A DNA stretch of 64,000 nt from Escherichia coli (GTDB lineage Bacteria; Pseudomonadota; Gammaproteobacteria; Enterobacterales; Enterobacteriaceae). Positions 5,398-51,280 of the stretch are shown here, piece after piece; within the stretch, counting starts at the first letter, position 1, and every line of letters starts with the position of its first letter. Position numbers and translations under genes: made by a program. The notes under the pieces were generated by a model, which did no database searches, was not told the origin of the DNA, and worked only from the letters and a program-made list of their open reading frames with translations. The stretch lies in the NCBI RefSeq assembly GCF_036507355.1, contig NZ_AP027877.1, one strand, 5' to 3'.

Positions 5398-5490
5398 GGT
5401 GAGGTGGCCGAGAGGCTGAAGGCGCTCCCCTGCTAAGGGAGTATGCGGTCAAAAGCTGCATCCGGGGTTCGAATCCCCGCCTCACCGCCA
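5398..5490 (+). tRNA. serV: tRNA-Ser (anticodon GCU)
   Basis: 93-nt sequence ggtgaggtggccgagaggctgaagg...ctcaccgcca with long variable arm and anticodon loop ctGCTaa. Confidence 0.93.
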
Positions 5491-5493
5491 TTT

Positions 5494-5570
5494 GCATCCG
5501 TAGCTCAGCTGGATAGAGTACTCGGCTACGAACCGAGCGGTCGGAGGTTCGAATCCTCCCGGATGCACCA
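5494..5570 (+). tRNA. argV: tRNA-Arg (anticodon ACG)
   Basis: 77-nt gcatccgtagctcagctggatagagtactcggctACGaaccgag...ggatgcacca. Confidence 0.93.
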
Positions 5571-5634
5571 TCTCTTACTTGATACGGCTTTAGTAGCGGT
5601 ATCAAAAAATCTGCAGTAAAGTAAGTTTCCCGAT

Positions 5635-5711
5635 GCATCCGTAGCTCAGCTGGATAGAGTACTCGGCTACGAACCGAGCGGTCGGAGGTTCGAATCCTCC
5701 CGGATGCACCA
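5635..5711 (+). tRNA. argY: tRNA-Arg (anticodon ACG)
   Basis: Identical 77-nt tRNA-Arg copy. Confidence 0.93.
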
Positions 5712-5773
5712 TCTCTTACTTGATATGGCTTTAGTAGCGGTATCAATATCAGCAGTAAAATAAATTTCCCGAT

Positions 5774-5850
5774 GCATCCGTAGCTCAGCTGGATAGAGTA
5801 CTCGGCTACGAACCGAGCGGTCGGAGGTTCGAATCCTCCCGGATGCACCA
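5774..5850 (+). tRNA. argZ: tRNA-Arg (anticodon ACG)
   Basis: Identical 77-nt tRNA-Arg copy. Confidence 0.93.
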
Positions 5851-5952
5851 TATTCTCCGTAATCATCAGTGATGATGGTTAAGAAGGATTTTCTTACTTG
5901 ATATGGCTTTAGTAGCGATATCAATATCAGCAGTAAAATAAATTTTCCCGAT

Positions 5953-6029
5953 GCATCCGTAGCTCAGCTGGATAGAGTACTCGGCTACGAACCGAGCGGT
6001 CGGAGGTTCGAATCCTCCCGGATGCACCA
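5953..6029 (+). tRNA. argQ: tRNA-Arg (anticodon ACG)
   Basis: Identical 77-nt tRNA-Arg copy. Confidence 0.93.
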
Positions 6030-36858: not shown

Positions 36859-38127
36859 TTATTGATTAAATGCGGCGTGTAAGGCATCCACACTACGTGC
36901 CGCTCGCAGCGTGCGTCCGGGGTTACTCTGGCTTGCCAACAGCGTTTGTACCTTGCTGACAATATGCGCACCAATAGGAATTGCTGATGTCGCTGCCGGG
37001 GAGGGCGCATTACAGGTGTGGATCGTGCGCGGGGTGGTGACAAACAGAAAATCGTCAATCAGCTTGCCGTCCGGCGATACCGCCTGCGCCCGCACACCGG
37101 CGGGCCAGGGCTGGAGATCGCTTAACGAAAGCCGGGGACAATACTTTTGCACCAGCCGCAGATAGCCGCTTTTGCACAGCGAGTTTTTCATCTCGCCCAG
37201 TCCTGAGCGTAGATGGTTTTGCAGCACCCGGCGAATCCCCGACGAGCCTAAAATCTCCAGCGTGTCGCTAAATGAGAAGTCGCGCTTGCGATAGCCTTCG
37301 CGTTTGAAAGCCAGCACCGCGTTTGGCCCGACGGTCACGCTGCCGTCGATCATGCGGGTGAGATGCACTCCCAAAAACGGCATTGCCGGGTCGGGGATGG
37401 GGTAAATCAGGTGGTTAACAATCTGGTTATGCTCCGGCGCCAGGCGGAAATACTCACCACGGAACGGGCAGATGATAAAGCCCGGTTCGAGGCCGAGCAT
37501 TTTCACCAGCCGGTCAGCCATCAGCCCGGAACAGCTAATCAGCGTTGATGCTTCATATTCGCCGCCCTGACGGGTATGTATCACCACGCCGTTTTTATGC
37601 TCATTAAGCCCTCTGACTTCGGCGTTATAGATAATTTCACCGCCTCTGGCCTGGAAGATTTTTGCCATTGCCGCCGTCACTTCGCGATAGCTGACGATGC
37701 CGCTGGACGGCACAAAAATACCGCCAAGCCCGGTGATATTCGGTTCGCGCTCGCGCAGTTCATCGGCGTTTAACCACTCGCGCTCGATACCGTTCGCGGC
37801 CGTGCGTTCCCATAAGGCGCGCATCCGTTCCATTTCGAGTTCAGACGTGGCGACCAGCATCTTGCCGCAGTTGTCGTAGCGAATGCCGTTTTGATCGCAA
37901 AAGGCTTTGGTGGCGCGGTTTCCCGCCAGGCAAAACTGCGCCTTCAGACTGCCGGGCGTGTAATAAACCCCGGCATGGATCACGCCGCTGTTGTGGCCCG
38001 TCTGGTGACAGGCCGGGCCGGACTCTTTTTCCAGCAACGCAATGCGGGCGTCCGGGTAGACATCAATCAGTTGCATGGCGGTCGACATGCCGATGATGCC
38101 GCCGCCAATAATCACAAAATCATACAT
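36859..38127 (-). CDS. lhgO: L-2-hydroxyglutarate oxidase/dehydrogenase LhgO
   Basis: FAD-binding GxGxxG (MYDFVIIGGGIIGMSTA); start placed at MYDF. Confidence 0.9.
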   Translation of the reverse strand: MYDFVIIGGGIIGMSTAMQLIDVYPDARIALLEKESGPACHQTGHNSGVIHAGVYYTPGSLKAQFCLAGNRATKAFCDQNGIRYDNCGKMLVATSELEMERMRALWERTAANGIEREWLNADELREREPNITGLGGIFVPSSGIVSYREVTAAMAKIFQARGGEIIYNAEVRGLNEHKNGVVIHTRQGGEYEASTLISCSGLMADRLVKMLGLEPGFIICPFRGEYFRLAPEHNQIVNHLIYPIPDPAMPFLGVHLTRMIDGSVTVGPNAVLAFKREGYRKRDFSFSDTLEILGSSGIRRVLQNHLRSGLGEMKNSLCKSGYLRLVQKYCPRLSLSDLQPWPAGVRAQAVSPDGKLIDDFLFVTTPRTIHTCNAPSPAATSAIPIGAHIVSKVQTLLASQSNPGRTLRAARSVDALHAAFNQ

Positions 38128-38146
38128 CCGCTCAATTCCTTTGCGC

Positions 38147-39238
<1,092 letters not shown>

Positions 39239-39460
39239 TTATTGTGATCAAAAACAACAAATTAGTAACATTTAACGTAGGGTATTAAGGTAAAGTGAGA
39301 CAGGAAATGAATAACTAAAGCAACAGGTTAGGGGGGAATTACCATCAGAGAACAGATTATCTGGTCGATAAAAAACAGTAAATGGCTTCACTGCAAAATG
39401 ACCGTCAGTAAACTAAACATATTATCTGCCCCGTTTTAGCGGGGCAGATATAACATTAAA

Positions 39461-40307
39461 TTACAAATAGAGATAGTTCGGCAGTTCTCCTGTTTTCCCT
39501 AAAAGAAGAGCGCTACGCCCAGGAATGTTGATATTTAGAGTTCCGCCTTTAAGCGTAAATACTTTACCAGGGGGAATACTTTTGCGTGTATTATTAATAA
39601 TAATGTTAACGCTATTACTCCCCATATTTTTATATATTCCTGGTTGCAATTTGTTAGGCCAGGTACCTTCAATTTCTTCGTTTCCTTTATTTATTATAAC
39701 TAGTCCGTCATGAGGAGAGTGATTAATATTCACAGAATCCCCACGACTAAAGACCAGAATGTTTTTAGTTGCAAATACACCCTCAAATGCGCTCCATATT
39801 CCTTCTTTATCTATATATAATGCGTGGAATTCATTGTAGAGCTGCTGATAGGTAGAGCAACCTTTATTAAGCCACGCCCACCGCCGACACGCGTGGACCC
39901 ATCATCATTTTTAATCTCAGTCGTTGATTTTAATACCTGACCATCCCAGTAAACTAAAGGCCTGCTGAACGGGAGAGCGGCCATATATGCCATTGCTAAT
40001 TGTTCATCTTGTTGATGGTTAAATAGAAAGTCATTGAAAAGATTGCCATTGTTAGGAAAATCGTGGTTAATGTTAATCAATATCCGTCTTTCTGATGGGA
40101 TGCTTGAGATTGTGGAACCCGGTTTTGATGCAAGGGTTTGGAGATCGCCACCAAATGAAAAGGCTTTTATCGTCTTCATGAGCAATGAAAAATCAATGGC
40201 GCTTAAATCATCTCTTTCATAAAGTAGCGATGACATTTGTTGTTCATCCAACTGGCAAGTTACCAGATATTCCATGTAATTCATAACGGCTTTTTCATGA
40301 TATTTTG
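39461..40307 (-). pseudogene. Downstream fragments of an alpha-amylase-like (ygaQ-like) gene, separated from the 5' part by IS1
   Basis: Two short minus-strand ORFs (39461..39733 and 39811..40284) in different frames continuing the gene interrupted at 40308. Confidence 0.55.
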
Positions 40308-41075
40308 GGTGATGCTGCCAACTTACTGATTTAGTGTATGATGGTGTTTTTGAGGTGCTCCAGTGGCTTCTGTTTCTATCAGCTGTCCCTCCTGTTCAGC
40401 TACTGACGGGGTGGTGCGTAACGGCAAAAGCACCGCCGGACATCAGCGCTATCTCTGCTCTCACTGCCGTAAAACATGGCAACTGCAGTTCACTTACACC
40501 GCTTCTCAACCCGGTACGCACCAGAAAATCATTGATATGGCCATGAATGGCGTTGGATGCCGGGCAACAGCCCGCATTATGGGCGTTGGCCTCAACACGA
40601 TTTTACGTCACTTAAAAAACTCAGGCCGCAGTCGGTAACCTCGCGCATACAGCCGGGCAGTGACGTCATCGTCTGCGCGGAAATGGACGAACAGTGGGGC
40701 TATGTCGGGGCTAAATCGCGCCAGCGCTGGCTGTTTTACGCGTATGACAGGCTCCGGAAGACGGTTGTTGCGCACGTATTCGGTGAACGCACGATGGCGA
40801 CGCTGGGGCGTCTTATGAGCCTGCTGTCACCCTTTGACGTGGTGATATGGATGACGGATGGCTGGCCGCTGTATGAATCCCGCCTGAAGGGAAAGCTGCA
40901 CGTAATCAGCAAGCGATATACGCAGCGAATTGAGCGGCATAACCTGAATCTGAGGCAGCACCTGGCACGGCTGGGACGGAAGTCGCTGTCGTTCTCAAAA
41001 TCGGTGGAGCTGCATGACAAAGTCATCGGGCATTATCTGAACATAAAACACTATCAATAAGTTGGAGTCATTACC
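40308..41075 (+). mobile_element. IS1 insertion sequence, copy 1 (768 bp, with target-site duplication)
   Basis: Starts ggtgatgctgccaacttactgat, ends ...gttggagtcattacc; insA-like ORF 40363..40638 and insB-like ORF 40557..41060; flanked by atattttg direct repeats (40300..40307 and 41076..41083). Confidence 0.95.
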
Positions 41076-42488
41076 ATATTTTGGGTTAAATAAGTTAGTG
41101 TTGTGTAATCGCTCATTATAATTTTTAAGCGGTGGGGTTATTGATCTTTCTATTTGTTCATGTTTTGAGTGTTTTGCTGCATCATAACGTAAACCTCGTA
41201 CGCCATATTTTCGCATTTCACGAACGTATTGATTTTGCAGCATAATAACCTGGTCACTTTTGGGGGTTGTTTTAGGCATTCCATTTAAACGCTTTTCTTT
41301 TAATGCATGGAGGTTTTCCCATTCATCCTTAGAGATGTTATCTTTACTTGCTTCGAAGTCTTTTGCAGTGAGATGTATATCTTCTGGATGGATTTGTTTA
41401 CGTTCTTTTGTTACTGGATCGATAATAAATGGAACCAAAACCTGACCTTGCCAATAGCCAGGGATACCACCTTCTATATCTTTACTGATCTTCGCTCGTA
41501 TATCAGCAGAGGGATAATCCAGGTCATTTTTACCACTACCCCCGATTCCCATAAAGTTAAAGGTATAATCAGGAATGATATCGATACCAAATTTTTTAGC
41601 ATCTTTAACCAATGCGATAAAATCCTGCAAATCTCCCATTGGATTATGGATGGTACAAAGATCTTCGGGTTGATAAGCGTGAAACCAGTAACCTTTTTCT
41701 TCTTCGGGAGTTTCTGGTCCGTCGGCACGGAAAGTTGTCACTGGAGGGATTTGTATATACCCATAATGGCAACGTGCAAATTCAGACATATTTTCTCTGA
41801 TTTGCTGGTAGGTGGCATTAAAAGCATGAAGAATCGCTTCGCCAGGTTTTTTGGGGGTGATGATTTCACATTGTGATTTCTGAACAGCAGTAAGAGATTT
41901 ACGCTCAAGTGTTTGCCGTAGATGTTCTGGATTGATTAGTATTTTAAATGTTTCTTGCTGTCCGGAAGGTGACGTCACGTTAATATTATATACATCGGCT
42001 GCCAGCTCATAGTCAGGAATGTTAATAGCATATGCAACATATTTATCTTTTGGGGAGGGTTTGTCAGATATAATGTGGGTGAAATGTTCAGCAGGACCAT
42101 ACTGGTGAACCCCCTTGTTATCTTCTCTTTCATTCATTGTATCTCTTTGATAAATCCATGTTTTTCCTTCTCCTATCCTGTCTGGCGCTGTAATACTACG
42201 CTGTGCAGCTTTATTCAGTTCACGGTAAGTTGTATCTGGAAAAAGGGAAATTTTATAATCGTTTTTTAACAGATCATTAATGATTTTTTCTGCGTGAAAA
42301 GTTGATATAATTTCTCTGTCTTTTAAATCCTGAGGATAAACTCCACAAGCATTAATAATATTTGTTACACAGTTTAGATATTCTAATGTATTTAATTTGG
42401 AATTTAGATCCCCGTCAGTAATGTTCCATGATAACAATGTGGGGTTGTCGATAGGTAAATTTCTTGGTCCTGGTTTTATAGAAAACAT
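41076..42488 (-). pseudogene. 5' portion of alpha-amylase-like (GH13, ygaQ-like) gene disrupted by IS1
   Basis: ORF 40995..42488 carries GH13-like motif GVRGLRYDAAKH; its last ~27 codons read into IS1. Confidence 0.7.
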
Positions 42489-43047
42489 AATAACGTTCCT
42501 CTAATGGTAGAGTAATATGATGTATACGGAGACATAAAAATGTTTAATTGTTGTGAAAGTAATTGCAAACAGATGTCCTATTTTTATCCAATATTTATAT
42601 GGAAAAGGATAATGCTTAAATCTGTTTTTTTAATTATCGATGTGGTCTGGAGAGGCAACTGTCAAAAATCGCTCATACGAAACTAATTATTAGCAGAATA
42701 AGTTCTATAAAAGAATATATTGCTATATGAAGTTTATTTTTATGGAGTGAAAAGTAACAGATATCATAATGATGCGAAAACTCTTCAGTTAATGTAATAA
42801 ACTTATATTATTAGATACAAAATCATTACAAAGTATCATTGAATCGATGATAACTATAGACAGTGTTAATTATTAACATTTGCTTGTTGACTGCGAGTAT
42901 CGACTTTGCGAATGGAGGCGATGTCGGGTTTTATGTCGCATGTATTGACGACCCAGGATGGATGAGAACGCATAAAAATCTGTTATTTACATCATAAGAT
43001 CATCATGTTTATTGCGTGGTTTATAAGTATTGTTATTGCATACTTAA

Positions 43048-43123
43048 GGCCCTTTAGCTCAGTGGTTAGAGCAGGCGACTCATAATCGCTTGGTCGCTGG
43101 TTCAAGTCCAGCAGGGGCCACCA
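43048..43123 (+). tRNA. ileY: tRNA-Ile2 (anticodon CAU/lysidine type)
   Basis: 76-nt ggccctttagctcagtggttagagcaggcgactCATaatcgcttggtcgctggttcaagtccagcaggggccacca. Confidence 0.9.
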
Positions 43124-43873
43124 AATCATCATTCATGTATCAGGAAGAGTTAAGGGTACAAGGGGTACTCGATGGCGGTCTATATTTCATGACTAACGCC
43201 ATTTAAAGGAAGAAGTGCGGTGGGTGGTTTCGAATGAGGGCTGGTGTTTTGGTACGTGGCACGCCACTGCAATGTATTTATCCATCAGTACTCATTCAAA
43301 AGTACCTGGAAAAAATGCCCGCTATGCCAAGCGGGCAAATTGCTTACATGTGGAATTAAGTAATTAACGATAAAGCCAGAGTATTATCATTTATTATACC
43401 CATTCATTTAATCAGGTTAATTACTCAAATCACTGAACTATTCTCTGTTCGCTCACTGATGATGAGTGAGTACCACAACCAATGTATTAGAACAATGCCG
43501 TAGAGTAAGGATGAAATGTCTCTACCACACCTTAAACATCTACTACTGACTAGAACACCCGCCGCAGGTAGATGAGTTTTGTGAGCGTTACAGGAGCGTG
43601 GCTATGCTCATTAACCAACGCTATTGAGATATAAATTTCTAACACTTGAAAAACGATTTTCACTAATAAATTATAACGGGTGTTTTTTATCATACAGCGA
43701 AATAACTTTTTGTTTATTAAATTTAACATTCTTGTGCTAATTTAATTAAAAAGTCCATGCGTAGCATGTGAAGCAGTTAATGCCAGCAATTGTCTCAAAT
43801 GAGCGATTTTTTATAGTGACAAACAATAATAACATTAAAAATAGCCATGTAGACATTAACTGAGGAATAGACA

Positions 43874-45223
43874 ATGTTAATTAATAAAAGCAACGGATTT
43901 AACGCTAGCGCAGTTTTGGGTAGTGGAAATTATAATGAAAATAAATCTTCTAAACACATGGAGCTACTAGCTCATAGTATTGTAAAATTAATTTGTAAGG
44001 AAGCTGCATCAGAGACGTATCGCGGTGCTCTTGAAACTTTACAAAAAATGATGTCTGAATGTAAATATAAAGAAGGCAACGCCTTTGTCATTATGGGTGC
44101 TGGAGGGCAATTAAAACGTATTAAATATGATGTTGATGAAAATAAATTAAAAATATTCAACATATACTTTGATAATAATTACGAGGTAGTTACTGATGGT
44201 GAGCCTGACGTAGTATGTTTAAGCAAGCAGGTCTGGGAAAATCTTCTCATTAAATTAAAACCGGAGATTAAAGAAAATGTGTTTTCTGAAAATAACAAAT
44301 TATCGAGAGAAAATAATGTTGATCAGTATGTTCAATCCGCTAAAAGAAATGAACAGGCCCTTTTCGATAATATAATAAAAAGTGATTTTCATGTTGCTTC
44401 ACTTCAGCCAGGTAGAACACGTAGTGTTATTTCAGAAACGCCGCCAAATGACTGTATGGAATCACGTAATTCATATGAAAACCAAATAGATGAGATTTCA
44501 TCTTTGTCAGAGTCAAAGGAACACCCTATAGATATTCAAGAAAAAACAGATGCGTTTGTGAATGAGTTCAAGGGGATATTATTTGATCAAAATGGAAGGT
44601 CTTCAGAGTTTCTACTTAATTTTTATGAATGTTGCTATGTGTTTTTACCAAGAGCGCAGCCTCAGGATAAAATCGAAAGCTATAATTCAGCACTGCAAGC
44701 TTTTTCCATCTTTTGTTCATCTACGTTGACACATAATAATATAGGCTTTGATTTCAAATTATTTCCAGAAGTCAAGCTGTCTGGAGAACATCTTGAAACG
44801 GTATTCAAATACAAAAATGGCGATGATGTCCGGGAGATAGCCAAAATTAACATTTCTCTCCAAAAAGAAGAGGGTGGTTTATATAATTTACGTGGATTGG
44901 ATTTTAAGGGATGCTTCTTTTCTGGACAGAACTTCAGTAACTATGATATTCAATACGTGAACTGGGGAACGTCATTGTTTGATGTTGATACTCCGTGTAT
45001 TTTTAATACGCCTGCTAACAATGAGAGTTATGAAAAATCATTAAAACCTGTAAGCGAAAACGGTTTAAATGGAGTCTTATCTGATCGTATTAAAAAAATA
45101 AAAATGATCACGGGTGTGGCACCATTCGATGATATTTTATTTATGGATGATGACTTTGATGATAACTCCCCTGAGGATGGTCCCGTTGAGAATATTCCTG
45201 TTATGAATAGTCCTCTTGTATAA
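43874..45223 (+). CDS. Hypothetical protein, AT-rich, with C-terminal pentapeptide-like repeats and acidic tail
   Basis: 449-aa ORF; visibly AT-rich; NLRGL/DFKGC/FFSGQ/NFSNY/DIQYV/NWGTS pentad periodicity; ends MDDDFDDNSPEDG; hairpin ggggctacgttttcatgtaacccc ~150 bp after the stop. Confidence 0.6.
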   Translation: MLINKSNGFNASAVLGSGNYNENKSSKHMELLAHSIVKLICKEAASETYRGALETLQKMMSECKYKEGNAFVIMGAGGQLKRIKYDVDENKLKIFNIYFDNNYEVVTDGEPDVVCLSKQVWENLLIKLKPEIKENVFSENNKLSRENNVDQYVQSAKRNEQALFDNIIKSDFHVASLQPGRTRSVISETPPNDCMESRNSYENQIDEISSLSESKEHPIDIQEKTDAFVNEFKGILFDQNGRSSEFLLNFYECCYVFLPRAQPQDKIESYNSALQAFSIFCSSTLTHNNIGFDFKLFPEVKLSGEHLETVFKYKNGDDVREIAKINISLQKEEGGLYNLRGLDFKGCFFSGQNFSNYDIQYVNWGTSLFDVDTPCIFNTPANNESYEKSLKPVSENGLNGVLSDRIKKIKMITGVAPFDDILFMDDDFDDNSPEDGPVENIPVMNSPLV

Positions 45224-45649
45224 AGTTCTAAAAGCAGTTTTCAATGATAAATAAATGGCTATTTTTACGAAGAGATAATAACGTAGATTGAAACAATATG
45301 TATTATTGATTGAGTAAATGGGATTATTCTTCACACTACATCCATTTTAGTGTCACTACCAAAGAAAAAGGGGCTACGTTTTCATGTAACCCCTTGATTT
45401 ATTTGGTGGGCTGGCAGTGACTGAATTGGTGCTGTAATTGGTTGAAATATTTCATCTAATGTCTGGTTCAACTTTCCTTAGCTGCCTGAAAGTTTTTTGA
45501 TCTCACCCAGTAATAACAGCGTTACGGTGCACCACGCCTGACTGAAGAACTGCGTGCTCAGGGTTACCACTTCAACGTAAAACCGTGGCAGGAGGTCCGG
45601 ACTGAAAAAACTGCTCAGGACATCATCGGCAGGGAACGCACTGCTAGTC

Positions 45650-45830
45650 TGTAAACTGAACCGACTGGGGCGCAGTATGTGGCATCTTGTCGTGCTGTTG
45701 GAGGAGCTGTGCGAACGTGGTATTAACTTTCGTGCTCTGGCCCAATCTATATTTGCCCAACAATGGGGGGACGAATGCTGTAAAAGTAAAACAATCTGCG
45801 ATCTCAAAGTTATTGTGTGATTTTTATGTG
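45650..45830 (+). pseudogene. Remnant of a Pin/Hin-type serine invertase (pinH-like)
   Basis: Translated fragment [37 protein letters not shown] resembles the invertase core (...WKLDRLGRS...RGI.F.SL...); frame breaks upstream. Confidence 0.55.
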
Positions 45831-46149
45831 AGCAGAAGATATTCATCAGAAACGATTATGTAAATCATTTTATTTTGCCAACGGCCTCATTGTCGAAAGA
45901 AAAGAATACGCCCGTGTTTCCTGAATAGATTGACTTTTTTATCTAACCACACTTCAGCGCACTGCGTTTAAAAAATGCCTCATTCTTATGCGGAATATCA
46001 TCATTTCATCATGATGTCTTTGATGAGCGGTGAACACAATACACTTGCGCTGTCTCTTCAGGATGAATCCCCTGGTCTGGTGCCTGTGGGCTGATGTTGC
46101 AGCAAAGCTAAGGTCGCTTAAACGCTACTCAGTATTCACTTTTCAGAGG

Positions 46150-47653
46150 ATGAAATTTATGAACAGGACCAGTCCCTATTATTTTCGCCGCTCAGTACTT
46201 TCCTTATTGATATCTACCTTAATATATGCCCAGCCCGGGATGGCGGCCTTCACTACTAATGTTATTGGTGTGGTAAACGATGAGACTGTAGATGGCAACC
46301 AACGAGTAGATGAACGAGGTACAACAAATAACACTCATATTATCAACCATGGCCGGCAGGAGGTCTATGGTGGGATATCTAATAGTAGTATTATTGAAAC
46401 TGGTGGCGAGCAACTAGTATCAATCCATGCCGATATTAACGGGCAAGCTAATAATACAACCATTAATGGAGGCAGACAGTCAATTGAGTACGGAGGAATT
46501 TCTACTAGCACGATAATCGAAAGTGGCAATCAATATGTTCATAAAGGTGGTACCAGCAATGACACGACAATTAAGGGCGGTACTTCACGCATAGAGGGGG
46601 GGACTGCAAATGGAACAATCATTGATGGTGGTAGCCAACAAGTAACAACTCAGGGGCATGTTGACGGTACAACGATAAATAAGTCTGGCTCTCAGGACGT
46701 AGTACAAGGAAGTCTGGCAACGAACACAACCATAAATGGTGGTCGACAGTATGTTGAACAGAGCACAGTAGAAACAACAACCATTAAAAATGGCGGTGAG
46801 CAAAGAGTATATGAGAGCCGTGCGCTGGACACGACGATTGAAGGCGGAACTCAGTCTCTGAATAGTAAGTCAACGGCAAAAAATACACAGATCTATTCTG
46901 GTGGCACGCAAATTGTTGATAACACCAGCTCCTCGGATGTTATTGAAGTTTATTCCGGTGGCGTGCTTGATGTTAGTGGTGGTACGGCAACAAATGTTAC
47001 CCAGCACGATGGTGCAATTTTAAAAACTAACACTAACGGTACGACGGTGAGCGGTACGAATAGTGAAGGTGCATTCTCCATCCACAATCACGTGGCAGAC
47101 AATGTGTTGCTGGAAAACGGTGGTCATTTAGACATAAACGCATATGGTTCGGCAAACAAGACGATTATTAAAGATAAAGGAACAATGTCAGTTTTAACCA
47201 ATGCTAAAGCTGATGCGACCCGAATAGATAATGGCGGGGTTATGGATGTTGCAGGAAACGCGACAAATACCATAATTAATGGTGGCACACAGAATATTAA
47301 TAATTATGGCATAGCCACAGGCACCAATATCAACAGCGGAACGCAAAATATCAAAAGCGGCGGGAAAGCTGACACAACAATTATATCCTCCGGGAGCCGG
47401 CAGGTTGTTGAGAAAGATGGTACGGCAATTGGCAGCAATATTAGCGCCGGAGGCTCGCTGATTGTCTATACCGGCGGTATTGCACATGGGGTTAACCAGG
47501 AGACGGGCAGTGCTTTAGTTGCCAACACGGGTGCAGGGACTGATATCGAAGGATACAACAAGCTCTCTCACTTCACTATTACCGGAGGGGAGGCTAATTA
47601 TGTTGTGCTGGAAAACGCTGGCTCATTAACAGTCGTCACTGGTTCCCGGGCAG
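46150..47653 (+). pseudogene. Autotransporter-adhesin passenger domain (ypjA-like), truncated by IS1
   Basis: Signal peptide MKFMNRTSPYYFRRSVLSLLISTLIYAQPGMA then repeated ...TTINGGRQ...GGT.. motifs; reading frame runs directly into the IS1 left end at 47654; no beta-barrel domain. Confidence 0.75.
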
Positions 47654-48421
47654 GGTGATGCTGCCAACTTACTGATTTAGTGTATGATGGTGTTTTTGAG
47701 GTGCTCCAGTGGCTTCTGTTTCTATCAGCTGTCCCTCCTGTTCAGCTACTGACGGGGTGGTGCGTAACGGCAAAAGCACCGCCGGACATCAGCGCTATCT
47801 CTGCTCTCACTGCCGTAAAACATGGCAACTGCAGTTCACTTACACCGCTTCTCAACCCGGTACGCACCAGAAAATCATTGATATGGCCATGAATGGCGTT
47901 GGATGCCGGGCAACAGCCCGCATTATGGGCGTTGGCCTCAACACGATTTTACGTCACTTAAAAAACTCAGGCCGCAGTCGGTAACCTCGCGCATACAGCC
48001 GGGCAGTGACGTCATCGTCTGCGCGGAAATGGACGAACAGTGGGGCTATGTCGGGGCTAAATCGCGCCAGCGCTGGCTGTTTTACGCGTATGACAGGCTC
48101 CGGAAGACGGTTGTTGCGCACGTATTCGGTGAACGCACGATGGCGACGCTGGGGCGTCTTATGAGCCTGCTGTCACCCTTTGACGTGGTGATATGGATGA
48201 CGGATGGCTGGCCGCTGTATGAATCCCGCCTGAAGGGAAAGCTGCACGTAATCAGCAAGCGATATACGCAGCGAATTGAGCGGCATAACCTGAATCTGAG
48301 GCAGCACCTGGCACGGCTGGGACGGAAGTCGCTGTCGTTCTCAAAATCGGTGGAGCTGCATGACAAAGTCATCGGGCATTATCTGAACATAAAACACTAT
48401 CAATAAGTTGGAGTCATTACC
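47654..48421 (+). mobile_element. IS1 insertion sequence, copy 2 (768 bp, no target-site duplication)
   Basis: Same sequence and orientation as copy 1 (identical InsA/InsB translations); flanks cccgggcag / gaggttttg do not match. Confidence 0.95.
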
Positions 48422-49239
48422 GAGGTTTTGTTATATATGTTGTTTCCAATATATTTTTCATTTGTCAAAATTTGATGTATTTTTGCACGAGTCCATAATG
48501 TTCCATTTTCTGCAGGTATGTTCTGTTCATTTAATCTCTCAGCAATAATGAATTCTGGGACGTTATTATCTATAAAGAGATCATATATTCTATTTACAAT
48601 TTTTATTTCATTTTTTGGTCCCGGAATTAATATTACCCTATCTGTTTGAATACTCTTTCTTTTGCGGAAACTCAATATTTCTTTAGCTATGCCATTTTCG
48701 TCTACTAAAAGACGTCTCAGCCCATAACCAGCCATACCGCCTTGATGATAACCAAGCTTTATTAAATTTACTTGCCCTATAAATACCTTTTCAGATAGAT
48801 TCCTGCTGTGATATGCAGCACTAGATCTTTTTATATTCAGTATAACAGAGGACTCTAAAGGGAAATCTTTAGTGGGTATAGGTTCGGAACAATATATAAG
48901 ATCTACACCATTTCTCTCAAATAGAAAGGAATAATATGCCGCTTCATCACTATTTTGAAAACGACCAAAACGGCTCACATCATAAAATAATACAGCCTGT
49001 ATATCTATTTTCTTTTGTTCTACATCGCTAAGTAACTGCTGCAAAGAATGCCTGCCTACGATACTGACTCCGCTCTTACCTGCATCATCGTAGGTATAAG
49101 CGATTTCCATATTGTTCTTTTCAGCATAATCTTTGATATATTCGGACTGATTATGTAAAGAATATTGCTGATGGTCGGTAGACATCCTCAAGTACTGCGC
49201 GACCCTAACTCTATGATTTTTTTCATTTTCGCTAGCCAT
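48422..49239 (-). pseudogene. Large serine recombinase, C-terminally truncated by IS1
   Basis: N-terminal resolvase catalytic motif VAQYLRMSTDHQ and following recombinase-domain sequence; ORF ends inside IS1 after ~272 codons; AT-rich. Confidence 0.7.
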
Positions 49240-49521: not shown

Positions 49522-50751
49522 TTATGCGGCAATAACTTTGCATTTTTGAGACGAAACATAGTCACTCCACCATTGCATGAGAACCACCCGTTCAGTGAGA
49601 TACTCTGCACGATTGTAGGCTGCAATTATTTCATCTTTCTTCGAGTGGGCAAGGGCGGCTTCTAAGACATCAGTCCTAAACTTGCCAGACTCCTCAGCAG
49701 CCGTTCTAGCAATGGATCGCATACCGTGAGCTACAAGCTCACCTCCGAAACCCATACGGATTATGGCCGCATTAGCTGTTTGTTCATGCATGTGATTGAG
49801 TGGAGCTTTGATACTGGGGAACACCCACTCTCTATGCCCGCTGATGACTTTCATTAAATCCAAAACTCGCAAAGCTTCTTTGCTCAGTGGAACTTTGTGA
49901 GGCTTCTTCATTTTCATAAACTCCGCCGGGATGTTCCACATGCCAGTTTCAATATCAATATCTGACCATCTTGTGCGAACAGCTTCACCTGGGCGAACCC
50001 ATGTGAGAAGTTGCCACTCAATCAGTAGCCTTGTTTCCAAACGGATAGAAGCATTGTTTAGAGCAACCAAGAAGCGAGGGAGTTCGGAAGGGGGTAATGC
50101 TGGCATATTCTGTTTTTTTGGCTTGCTGAACCGTTGCCCCAGGTTGTCTGCCGGGTTGAATTCTATGAGTTCTTCTGTTGCTGCATAGCGGAAAATTTCA
50201 TTCAGGCGGGATATGATGCGGCGAAGTGTTTCAAGGACACCTCGTTTTTCTATGGGTTCTAAATGCTGTTTAAGCATTTTAGGGCGAATCTCCTTAATTG
50301 GGGTATCACCCAATGTGGAAAAGATATTTCTCTCTAGGCTTCGCCAGATGTCGTTAGCATGATCTTGGGAGATGCCTGACGTTTTGACTTTCTCATCAAG
50401 CCACTTCTTGGCTACTGCTTGAAATGTATGTTCCGTGGCATCTTTCAGTGCATTGGCTTTTTGGTTGTTATGAACTTGGGGGTCTATACCATTTGTAAGC
50501 AACGACAAGTATTCATCACGTAAAGCTCGTGCCTTCGCAAGTGTAAGGTGAGGATAGGTTCCTAAGCTCACCTTAGTTCGCTTTTTGGTCACAGGCACTG
50601 CATATCTGAAATACCAATTTTTCTTCCCTCCCTTCGCCAGGGGAGCGATTCGCAACAGCAAACCATCGCCGTCAAAAAGGTTAACCTCTTTTTCGGCAGG
50701 TTTGGTGCTTTTGATTTCAGTGTCAGTGAGCTTCTTAGCGATTTTGGCCAT
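49522..50751 (-). CDS. P4-type tyrosine integrase adjacent to tmRNA
   Basis: ORF ...MAKIAKKLTDTEIKSTKPAEKEVNLFDGDGLLLRIAP...WYFRY...; C-terminal catalytic domain (HGMRSIARTAAEE); 166 bp from the ssrA 3' end. Confidence 0.88.
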   Translation of the reverse strand: MAKIAKKLTDTEIKSTKPAEKEVNLFDGDGLLLRIAPLAKGGKKNWYFRYAVPVTKKRTKVSLGTYPHLTLAKARALRDEYLSLLTNGIDPQVHNNQKANALKDATEHTFQAVAKKWLDEKVKTSGISQDHANDIWRSLERNIFSTLGDTPIKEIRPKMLKQHLEPIEKRGVLETLRRIISRLNEIFRYAATEELIEFNPADNLGQRFSKPKKQNMPALPPSELPRFLVALNNASIRLETRLLIEWQLLTWVRPGEAVRTRWSDIDIETGMWNIPAEFMKMKKPHKVPLSKEALRVLDLMKVISGHREWVFPSIKAPLNHMHEQTANAAIIRMGFGGELVAHGMRSIARTAAEESGKFRTDVLEAALAHSKKDEIIAAYNRAEYLTERVVLMQWWSDYVSSQKCKVIAA

Positions 50752-50917
50752 GTTTGGGACCCTCGATTTTAGGACCCATCTTCGTGGGTCCCATTCAGGG
50801 TGCCATAACTCGTAGTTCTCAGCAATTCTCACTAGACTACAATAGACGTAAAAAAGCCCGCAGAGCTTGTGCTGTGCGGGCTTAGTAGACTTTACTGAAC
50901 TTCAGTACATCAATATT

Positions 50918-51280
50918 TGGTGGAGCTGGCGGGAGTTGAACCCGCGTCCGAAATTCCTACATCCTCGGTACTACATGCTTAGTCAGTCTTTACATTCGCT
51001 TGCCAGCTGCGGACGGACACGCCACTAACAAACTAGCCTGATTAAGTTTTAACGCTTCAACCCCAGGCAGGGCTTCCACGCGATCTCTTTTGGGTTTGAC
51101 CTCTCTTGATCCCCGTCCTAAGAGCGGAGGCTAGGGAGAGAGGGCTCTAAGCAGGTTATTAAGCTGCTAAAGCGTAGTTTTCGTCGTTTGCGACTATTTT
51201 TTGCGGCTTTTTACGAGGCCAACCGCCCCTCGGCATGCACCTTGGGTTTCGCAAATCCCGTCGAATCCAGAATCAGCCCC
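50918..51280 (-). ncRNA. ssrA: tmRNA (SsrA)
   Basis: Minus-strand reading starts ggggctgattctggattcgacggg and ends gttcaactcccgccagctccacca; encodes tag peptide ANDENYALAA (gcaaacgacgaaaactacgctttagcagct); 363 nt. Confidence 0.95.

Follow-up and report, generated by a model that had tools for sequence, protein, structure and literature searches.

An intact allele of the Escherichia coli ypjCB gene in a decaying low-GC islet beside ileY, and a probable partner-binding role for its product

Introduction

A stretch of 64,000 nucleotides from the Escherichia coli contig NZ_AP027877.1 (assembly GCF_036507355.1), referred to here as the window, carries beside the tRNA gene ileY an AT-rich open reading frame (ORF) of 449 codons, ypjCB, and the locus raises the question of what this gene is and what its product might do. 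An earlier reading made from the letters alone (the sequence-only reading) had described horizontally acquired DNA beside a tRNA, encoding a protein with pentapeptide-like repeats and an acidic tail that might serve as a secreted effector or as a DNA mimic. ypjCB is one of the uncharacterised genes of E. coli, listed in the annotation of the reference strain K-12 as two genes, and a literature search returned no functional study of the intact YpjCB protein. In the analysis described here, the window is found to carry an intact ypjCB allele, of E. coli-only distribution, in a decaying islet, whose product is most likely a non-enzymatic protein that binds a partner, a reading to which we give a probability of roughly 0.6.

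An intact member of the YpjCB family

The 449-amino-acid ORF has an ATG start and lies exactly where the sequence-only reading had placed it, and it is preceded by a recognisable ribosome-binding site:

43862-43865, plus strand: Shine-Dalgarno sequence GAGG, 8 nt before the ATG, read directly from the sequence
43874..45223, plus strand: ypjCB coding sequence, intact allele, 449 codons plus stop (ORF list, NCBIfam NF050179, database identity)

The encoded protein matches the NCBIfam model NF050179 (Ecoli_YpjCB) with 924.4 bits, against a curated cutoff of 650, with residues 1-449 aligned to model positions 1-465 of 465, and in one polypeptide it carries the Pfam domain DUF5507 at residues 1-160 (E 1.3e-87) followed by DUF5508 at residues 195-449 (E 4.6e-163). 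It is 100% identical to one E. coli database protein, and the full-length database members listed share 76-100% protein identity with it. Comparison with the K-12 ypjC locus, which the sequence-only reading had proposed, proved informative: at the same position K-12 MG1655 has ypjC (b2650, DUF5507) and ypjB (b2649, DUF5508), and for the K-12 DH10B copy PGAP calls a single ypjCB pseudogene with an internal stop, which was located at codon 161. In O157 Sakai, the member of the family is ECs_3517. The window ORF represents the catalogued YpjCB family in unbroken form, and K-12 ypjC and ypjB are the same gene split. The earlier concern that the ORF might be a fragment of a longer known gene is answered by the full-length NF050179 match and by the family length distribution, in which 449 amino acids is the commonest length (67 of the 117 near-full-length database proteins of at least 430 residues), so that ypjCB is not such a fragment.

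It had also been stated that the first ~330 residues hold no recognisable motif, and this agrees with the absence of any Pfam match at E <= 0.1 beyond DUF5507 and DUF5508, the sole additional line being Ku_PK_bind at E 0.37. PADLOC models of anti-phage defence gave 0 families at E <= 1, and a PDB sequence search with the window protein gave nothing at E <= 10. PHROG 30093 matches ypjCB, and the Pfam, PHROGs, PADLOC and PDB sequence searches otherwise return the family's own DUF and PHROG entries alone. ypjCB is already known as a catalogued gene family and reveals no new kind of system.

The G+C content of the ORF is 0.33-0.36, compared with 0.50-0.56 in the flanking core genes (38000-39000 and beyond 51000), and the low-GC block, at ~39000-45500, exceeds the gene and takes in ygaQ. 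The end of ileY and the ypjCB ATG are separated by 750 nt, and the description of an AT-rich ORF of 449 amino acids some 750 bp after ileY is thus borne out by the ORF list, by ARAGORN and by the G+C profile. AUA accounts for 10 of the 30 isoleucine codons of ypjCB.

Distribution

Of 5426 complete E. coli genomes, 3023 (~56%) carry ypjCB, always as one chromosomal copy, most of them at 90-95% DNA identity to the window allele, which is itself rare, as only one complete genome reaches at least 99%. When 1.84 billion cluster representatives were searched exhaustively with HMMER, 45 matched: a single full-length cluster, at 76% identity, a set of E. coli-type fragments, and a PA14 protein with a marginal score. 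A pattern scan that covered each prokaryotic species with one genome turned up nothing beyond two short contigs that look like contaminants, none of the deposited phage genomes carries ypjCB, and a plasmid collection yielded only chromosomes mislabelled as plasmids and one partial copy on a 245-kb record. At 23 IMG/VR loci, ypjCB lies at the margins of predicted prophage regions, and it is this edge position that accounts for the PHROG 30093 match. On these searches the ypjCB family is confined to E. coli, with no convincing outside relative.

A reading frame kept while the protein changes fast

For codon comparison, the window allele was aligned with ten alleles spanning the diversity, and a twelfth, the frameshifted L013, was excluded from the codon alignment. 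Alleles differ by up to 23% in protein, and across the eleven the mean rate of non-synonymous substitution (dN) is 0.098 and that of synonymous substitution (dS) 0.137, with dN/dS 0.71. In the same strains, at comparable dS, dN/dS is 0.04 for glaH, 0.12 for ygaQ and 0.25 for ypjA, and by this ratio the YpjCB protein evolves ~17 times faster than a neighbouring core gene. ypjCB is neither older nor foreign relative to its neighbours; it is the protein that changes very fast. At least 278 missense events were counted among the 11 alleles as against 2 nonsense columns, where 19.6 would be expected given that 6.6% of non-synonymous mutational opportunities are nonsense (Poisson P = 6e-7). Because nonsense changes are about tenfold under-represented and a Shine-Dalgarno sequence is present, ypjCB is a real, selected protein-coding sequence whose frame has been kept.

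Constraint is unevenly spread along the protein. The most constrained segment is that of the pentads described below (dN/dS 0.17 for residues 334-370; ratio of non-synonymous to synonymous polymorphism, pN/pS, 0.22-0.25 for residues 331-375), followed by residues 241-315 (pN/pS 0.25-0.42) and residues 61-90 (0.39), whereas residues 1-30, 91-120 and 166-240 reach 1.1-1.6. Near the C-terminus, all of the 16 diverse alleles aligned share the tail motif TGVAPFD.I..MDDDFDD (residues 413-430) unchanged.

Domain layout and predicted structure

The segments of the protein that are distinguished by Pfam, by constraint and by structure prediction (AlphaFold2, with confidence given as the predicted local distance difference test, pLDDT) are as follows:

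43874..44353, plus strand: N-terminal domain, residues 1-160, DUF5507, equivalent to K-12 YpjC (Pfam E 1.3e-87)
44228..44548, plus strand: hypervariable linker, residues ~119-225, probably disordered (pLDDT <30; indels; all first lesions)
44456..45220, plus strand: C-terminal domain, residues 195-449, DUF5508, equivalent to K-12 YpjB (Pfam E 4.6e-163)
44594..44818, plus strand: constrained core 1, residues 241-315 (pN/pS as above; C-domain AlphaFold2 model)
44882..44986, plus strand: seven pentapeptide-like repeats, residues 337-371 (periodicity test, constraint, AlphaFold2, Foldseek on AFDB50)
45110..45220, plus strand: acidic tail, with the invariant motif of residues 413-430 at 45110-45163 and a variable end (pLDDT <35)

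The first ~28 residues are rich in serine, asparagine and threonine and nearly free of acidic residues; in the first 20, S/N/T make up 36-50% and D/E number 0-1 across alleles. For the N-terminal domain, AlphaFold2 suggests an alpha-alpha-beta4-alpha arrangement at pLDDT <45. In the linker, pN/pS is 1.3-1.6 in sliding windows covering residues 166-240 and 0.86 over residues 131-225 as a whole. Met195, at which K-12 YpjB starts, is invariant in the allele alignment, and no clear Shine-Dalgarno sequence was seen before its ATG. YpjCB is predicted to have neither a signal peptide nor a membrane segment, the highest Kyte-Doolittle 19-residue mean being 0.83. The acidic tail that had been noted earlier is real, with a net charge of -7 over the last 24 residues. 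The tail is otherwise variable and probably disordered, and within it TGVAPFD.I..MDDDFDD, acidic and hydrophobic in character, has the look of a short linear motif for binding.

Modelling of residues 215-390 gave a pLDDT of 63 and a predicted template modelling score (pTM) of 0.61, with three helices, three long antiparallel strands (294-328) and then the pentad strands; core 1 holds two of the three predicted helices (244-260 and 263-285) and the first two of the three long strands (294-303 and 306-315).

The pentad run

Seven consecutive pentads make up residues 337-371 (YNLRG LDFKG CFFSG QNFSN YDIQY VNWGT SLFDV), in which the central position i is L, F, F, F, I, W and F, hydrophobic in all seven, position i-1 is N or D in five, and position i-2 is Y, L, C, Q, Y, V and S, small (C, V, S) in three. 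A run this long with as many N/D arose in 1 of 20000 shuffles of the protein, so that the five-residue periodicity recognised by the sequence-only reading holds up; in a looser test, in which at least five of seven pentads had N or D followed by a hydrophobic residue, 19 of 20000 shuffles qualified. In the AlphaFold2 model, the pentad region consists of short strands about every five residues (pLDDT 71-79), and the pentads are predicted to form a four-sided beta-solenoid of ~1.75, or about two, turns.

Whether this makes YpjCB a pentapeptide-repeat protein is a separate matter. None of the Pfam pentapeptide models (PF00805, PF13576 and PF13599) matches YpjCB at E <= 10; EspX4, by contrast, carries all three. 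A Foldseek search of the PDB with the YpjCB model gave nothing below E 1e-3. On AFDB50, Foldseek listed the family itself and then three pentapeptide repeat-containing proteins at E 1.9e-5 to 1.2e-4, namely one of E. albertii (E 1.9e-5, TMq 0.45, 184 columns), a 'Bacteroides' fragment and a Salmonella fragment (E 1.2e-4), with obvious noise from E 2e-4 (a retrotransposon RNase H, TMq 0.2), ~tenfold weaker than the best. When the 60-residue pentad segment was searched against the PDB, antibody heavy-chain variable (VH) frameworks (E 0.04) ranked above Qnr (E 0.26), and the sequence likeness to pentapeptide proteins is therefore at noise level. The description 'pentapeptide-like', as used in the sequence-only reading, is justified for a short, conserved periodic segment in the structural sense, on the periodicity, the AlphaFold2 strands and the AFDB50 matches; neither the Pfam pentapeptide models nor the solved structures gave a match, and it is not established that YpjCB belongs to the pentapeptide-repeat or the SopA/EspX family.

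The antibody likeness itself covers residues 328-364 (window 44855-44965), SLQKEEGGLYNLRGLDFKGCFFSGQNFSNYDIQYVNW, which align without gaps at ~35% identity to VH framework 1 through complementarity-determining region 1 (QLQESGGGL...SC.ASGFTFS.Y.MSWV). At a PDB E-value of 0.04, this resemblance is almost certainly due to chance.

Natural disruptions and allele variation

Broken alleles are common, at 3 of the 12 chosen genomic loci and 12 of the 23 IMG/VR loci (L008, L009, L013, L019-L021, L030 and L032-L039). Four independent first lesions were distinguished, three of them stops (codons 119, 154 and 161) and the fourth a 1-bp deletion (codon 203), and all fall within the variable linker (codons 119-203, window 44228-44482), while the downstream 255-360 codons remain open in 15 of 15 broken alleles. 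As the linker comprises 19% of codons and 19-21% of nonsense opportunities, four lesions of four would be expected there with p ~0.0015 under uniform placement. The confinement of lesions to the linker, together with the open downstream frame, hints that each domain may keep its use when made as a polypeptide of its own, the arrangement annotated in K-12.

Length and block structure vary among alleles as well. A linker insertion of 25-35 residues is present in alleles P0104, P0121, P0078, P0088 and P0100 (alignment A1 columns 210-248), for example PVTKNSQQVKGHYGDKLKEMQMFLNQMSNALQQAP, and the C-terminal ends differ, giving forms of 449, 457, 474 and 484 amino acids. The pattern of blocks shared among alleles looks mosaic, which suggests recombination between alleles.

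A probable partner-binding role

Our preferred reading is that YpjCB would bind a partner macromolecule as an adaptor or decoy, rather than act as an enzyme, since no catalytic signature was found and selection acts mostly on three parts of the protein, namely the two-turn solenoid, the helical core and the acidic tail motif. These three parts would supply the binding surfaces, and the rest of the protein would drift or diversify under weak or diversifying selection. The protein is predicted to have an N-terminal domain that is folded and is joined to the C-terminal domain by a long hypervariable linker, and the two domains may work as separate polypeptides.

Published data on the K-12 locus touch on this gene in two respects. 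On Hha-enrichment arrays of K-12, the ypjC region was enriched 4.6-fold and the ypjC transcript changed 9-fold, and far fewer Hha sites were seen in an hns mutant, indicating that Hha binding is largely H-NS-dependent (PMC2408971); these data fit an AT-rich islet bound by H-NS and Hha. It has also been reported that when ypjC is deleted from K-12, the pathogen 55989 colonises the commensal biofilm more, with 3.5-fold more biofilm cells, and that a ypjC mutant of strain 55989 was not obtainable (PMC3646849).

Several points weigh against a binding role, or at least temper it. The gene is absent from 2403 of the 5426 complete genomes (44%) and is broken at the 3 of 12 and 12 of 23 loci described above, and a dN/dS of 0.71 also fits a gene that is losing function. 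That lesions cluster in the linker is only a hint, drawn from four events in a sample that was not random. The full-length AlphaFold2 model is poor (pLDDT 42, from a shallow alignment), with an uninterpretable N-terminal domain. The argument for binding proceeds by exclusion, from a lack of enzyme motifs, defence matches and fold matches, and constitutive expression of K-12 ypjC had no effect (Da Re et al., PMC3646849). What is added here to a known family is modest and lies in the high dN/dS with a kept frame, the constraint centred on the pentads and the linker-confined disruptions. For experiments, the intact allele is preferable to the K-12 copy, and the pentads and the tail motif offer handles.

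Alternative explanations

ypjCB might instead be an evolutionary relic, an orphan ORF hardly touched by selection, on its way to being lost and without present function. In our estimate this is unlikely, even though its dN/dS, 0.71 overall, exceeds 1 in several windows, 2403 of 5426 genomes lack it, it has no homologue outside E. coli, and it has suffered many independent disruptions (stops, frameshifts and insertion sequence (IS) elements), with ygaQ and ypjA also often pseudogenes. A gene of that kind is hard to reconcile with a frame kept through at least 278 missense events and a tenfold deficit of nonsense (P = 6e-7), with clear purifying selection on the pentads and helical core (0.17-0.42), or with disruptions that avoid both domains and a reported K-12 deletion phenotype. 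A doubtful but more substantial candidate is that a type III secretion system, that of the locus of enterocyte effacement (LEE) or E. coli type III secretion system 2 (ETT2), delivers YpjCB as an effector-like protein, distantly related to SopA/EspX, which would engage a host protein through its solenoid and acidic tail. The first non-family AFDB50 matches are indeed pentapeptide-repeat proteins (E. albertii, 'Bacteroides', Salmonella), although Foldseek noise begins only ~tenfold weaker, at E 2e-4, and SopA/NleL structures are absent from the PDB fold-search results. Profile-profile comparison aligns YpjCB 294-357 with EspX4/YjbI 65-124, which covers the hairpins before the repeats and the first turn, at E 0.0036-0.0054, and BLASTP aligns YpjCB and EspX4 at E 0.033, with a shuffle-test p of ~3e-4 for the aligned region; against this, the hhalign probability for EspX4 is 7-9% over 58-60 columns and the shuffle tests give p = 0.04 for the full length and p = 0.05 for the hairpins alone. 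The profile-profile test is a shallow one, because widening the EspX4 profile through the protein database added no members. Also in favour are the S/N/T-rich, nearly acid-free N-terminus, with S and N (together with M1) among its few invariant residues, and the character of ypjCB as a low-GC islet gene whose product lacks a signal peptide and, like many effectors, evolves fast; EspX4/yjbI, too, is widespread and a pseudogene in K-12. YpjCB, however, lacks the SopA central domain (PF13981) and any Pfam pentapeptide match, EspX1 shows no similarity to it, the curated Sakai record names espX1 an effector-like protein and ECs_3517 merely a 'hypothetical protein', and ypjCB is common in strains that lack the LEE, such as K-12. 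On these alignments, the similarity between YpjCB and SopA/EspX is not statistically secure, and the secreted-effector role proposed by the sequence-only reading, which would rest on that weak resemblance, is speculative. A variant in which YpjCB would be an E. coli-specific factor directed at a host or a competitor, a very divergent offshoot of SopA/EspX whose two-turn solenoid and tail motif bind the target while the remainder diversifies and the domains function split, seems to us quite improbable.

Two further suggestions concern the C-terminal part, and both are given very little weight. One is a Qnr/MfpA-type DNA mimic, whose pentapeptide helix and acidic tail would make contact with gyrase or some other protein that binds DNA, and YpjCB does have an acidic C-terminus and a segment, residues ~338-370, that aligns with Aeromonas Qnr (PDB 3pss) at E 0.9 with the family profile and 0.26 with the segment alone. 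These values are at noise level, with antibody VH frameworks scoring better, and neither a Pfam pentapeptide match nor a PDB fold match was obtained. Qnr and MfpA form dimers some 8-10 turns long, which mimic B-form DNA in both length and charge. YpjCB has only seven pentads, or ~1.75 turns, and because this run is far too short, the DNA-mimic role proposed earlier is most improbable. Scarcely any chance is allowed to a C-terminal beta region that is a PA14-like carbohydrate-binding module, a suggestion that arises from P0164, the sole non-family protein in the exhaustive search (E 3e-4), which has a Laminin_G_3 (LamG-like) domain and four PA14 domains; its alignment to residues 296-359 shows 37% identity and takes in FPE..LSG.HL and F.GC..S.QNF.N. 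This alignment straddles the boundary between two PA14 domains and its score sums four near-identical repeats, the DUF5508 model gives E 0.18-0.37 per domain against P0164, Pfam PA14 (PF07691) does not match YpjCB at E <= 10, P0164 is one hit among 1.84e9 proteins, and the AlphaFold2 model of YpjCB is not a PA14 barrel; the relationship was rejected as a probable chance match across a repeat junction.

The surrounding islet

The gene order gabD-lhgO-glaH-ygaQ-ileY-ypjCB-pinH'-(small ORF)-ypjA-(islands)-ssrA is conserved across the twelve genomes inspected, and the placement of ileY-ypjCB-pinH'/ypjA near ssrA is shared by K-12, O157 and nine other genomes. The islet that holds ypjCB (ygaQ-ileY-ypjCB-pinH'-ypjA), low in GC and often decaying, is flanked by glaH and ssrA, and its neighbouring features in the window are:

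40307..41075, plus strand: IS1 copy in ygaQ, with the 9-bp target duplication ATATTTTGG (repeat search, end mapping)
43048..43123, plus strand: tRNA-Ile(CAU) gene ileY, which decodes AUA (ARAGORN CAT anticodon; Rfam tRNA 71.6 bits)
45368..45395, no strand assigned: GC-rich hairpin, a possible two-way terminator, ~145 nt past the ypjCB stop, with an A-run before and a T-rich stretch after (consensus match only)
45584..45751, plus strand: pinH remnant (pinH'), an inner piece of a serine recombinase/invertase gene, with coordinates taken over from the record NZ_CM128593.1 (99% identical) and accurate within 1 nt
46159..47652, plus strand: 5' part of ypjA, an AIDA/Ag43-type autotransporter adhesin, cut by IS1 from 47653 (NCBIfam Ag43/AIDA matches; synteny)
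47653..48421, plus strand: second IS1 copy, which truncates ypjA, with no target duplication (IS1 transposase matches)
48400-49239, minus strand: serine recombinase-like ORF, 279 amino acids, between the second IS1 and ssrA
49522-50832, minus strand: P4-type tyrosine integrase, 436 amino acids, between the second IS1 and ssrA
50918-51280, minus strand: transfer-messenger RNA (tmRNA) gene ssrA

The tRNA at 43048-43123 is annotated as tRNA-Ile or ileY in related E. coli records, including those of K-12 and Sakai. In a comparison of the window locus with loci L001 and L005-L014, ileY was found to be polymorphic among strains at positions 28, 42-44 and 67, with changes that are mostly pair-preserving (G-U to A-U or G-C); within-species variation of this kind is unusual for a tRNA gene. 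In KE41, a genome that lacks ypjCB, a 3-kb query matched one place, the ileX tRNA locus beside mug/rpoD, and no second place for ileY. Because ileY is polymorphic and KE41 is matched only at ileX, ileY appears to be part of the islet and seems to travel with it, rather than being a fixed core tRNA that serves as an integration site, and the islet appears to carry its own AUA-reading tRNA. The signature of horizontal acquisition beside a tRNA, which the sequence-only reading had put forward, therefore stands as regards an AT-rich accessory islet by ileY with an uncharacterised product, but not as regards ileY as a fixed integration site.

Decay of the islet is seen in ygaQ and ypjA, which are often pseudogenes in the genomes inspected, and the K-12 pinH pseudogene holds the same position as pinH' in the window. 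The two IS1 copies are identical, have the same orientation and bracket ygaQ'-ileY-ypjCB-pinH'-ypjA', so that recombination between them could remove the whole bracketed segment; as the second copy lacks a target duplication and truncates ypjA, an adjacent deletion or rearrangement is implied. The serine recombinase-like and integrase ORFs are remains of an element integrated at ssrA, like CP4-57 of K-12. A stretch of 230 bp upstream of ypjA (window 45772-46000) is 83-86% identical to a stretch by ymgJ in many E. coli genomes, and may be an upstream region common to two autotransporter genes. Elsewhere in the window, a tRNA-Ser(GCU) gene followed by four tRNA-Arg(ACG) genes is clustered at 5398-6029.

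A promoter scan gave 14 sites, compared with 10.3 +/- 3.4 in shuffled sequence and hence no excess, and an Rfam scan of 42400-46200 found the tRNA as its sole match. The hairpin at 45368..45395 was placed on the minus strand by the pattern scan, and its sequence was also read directly. A second hairpin, strongly terminator-like, in the spacer between ileY and ypjCB (window 43316-43337, minus strand) has an 8-bp stem with 6 GC pairs and a T-run, with no obvious minus-strand gene reading into it. This spacer diverges by 5% between strains, compared with 9.7% for the ORF, and is thus the better conserved of the two.

Comparison with known systems

The known systems closest to YpjCB share some features with it and differ in others. 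With PA14 (PF07691), the likeness is limited to one PA14-repeat protein that aligns to residues 296-359, and the predicted fold of YpjCB differs. With Qnr and MfpA, YpjCB shares the five-residue periodicity, with a hydrophobic centre preceded by N or D, in a run that is far shorter; set against the tandem A(D/N)LXX unit of pentapeptide-repeat proteins, the inward-facing position i-2 carries a small residue in just three of its seven pentads. With the SopA/EspX4 (YjbI) type III effectors of E. coli and Salmonella, the likeness is that both are encoded by AT-rich accessory genes, lack a signal peptide and are decayed in K-12, and that the proteins show a weak local alignment; EspX4, however, has ~30 pentads near its N-terminus followed by PF13981, while YpjCB has seven near its C-terminus and other flanking domains. 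Compared with K-12 ypjC and ypjB, which are stopped at codon 161, the window allele is unbroken, and with the YpjCB family as a whole it shares a full-length match above the curated cutoff, both Pfam domains and the position between ileY and pinH'/ypjA.

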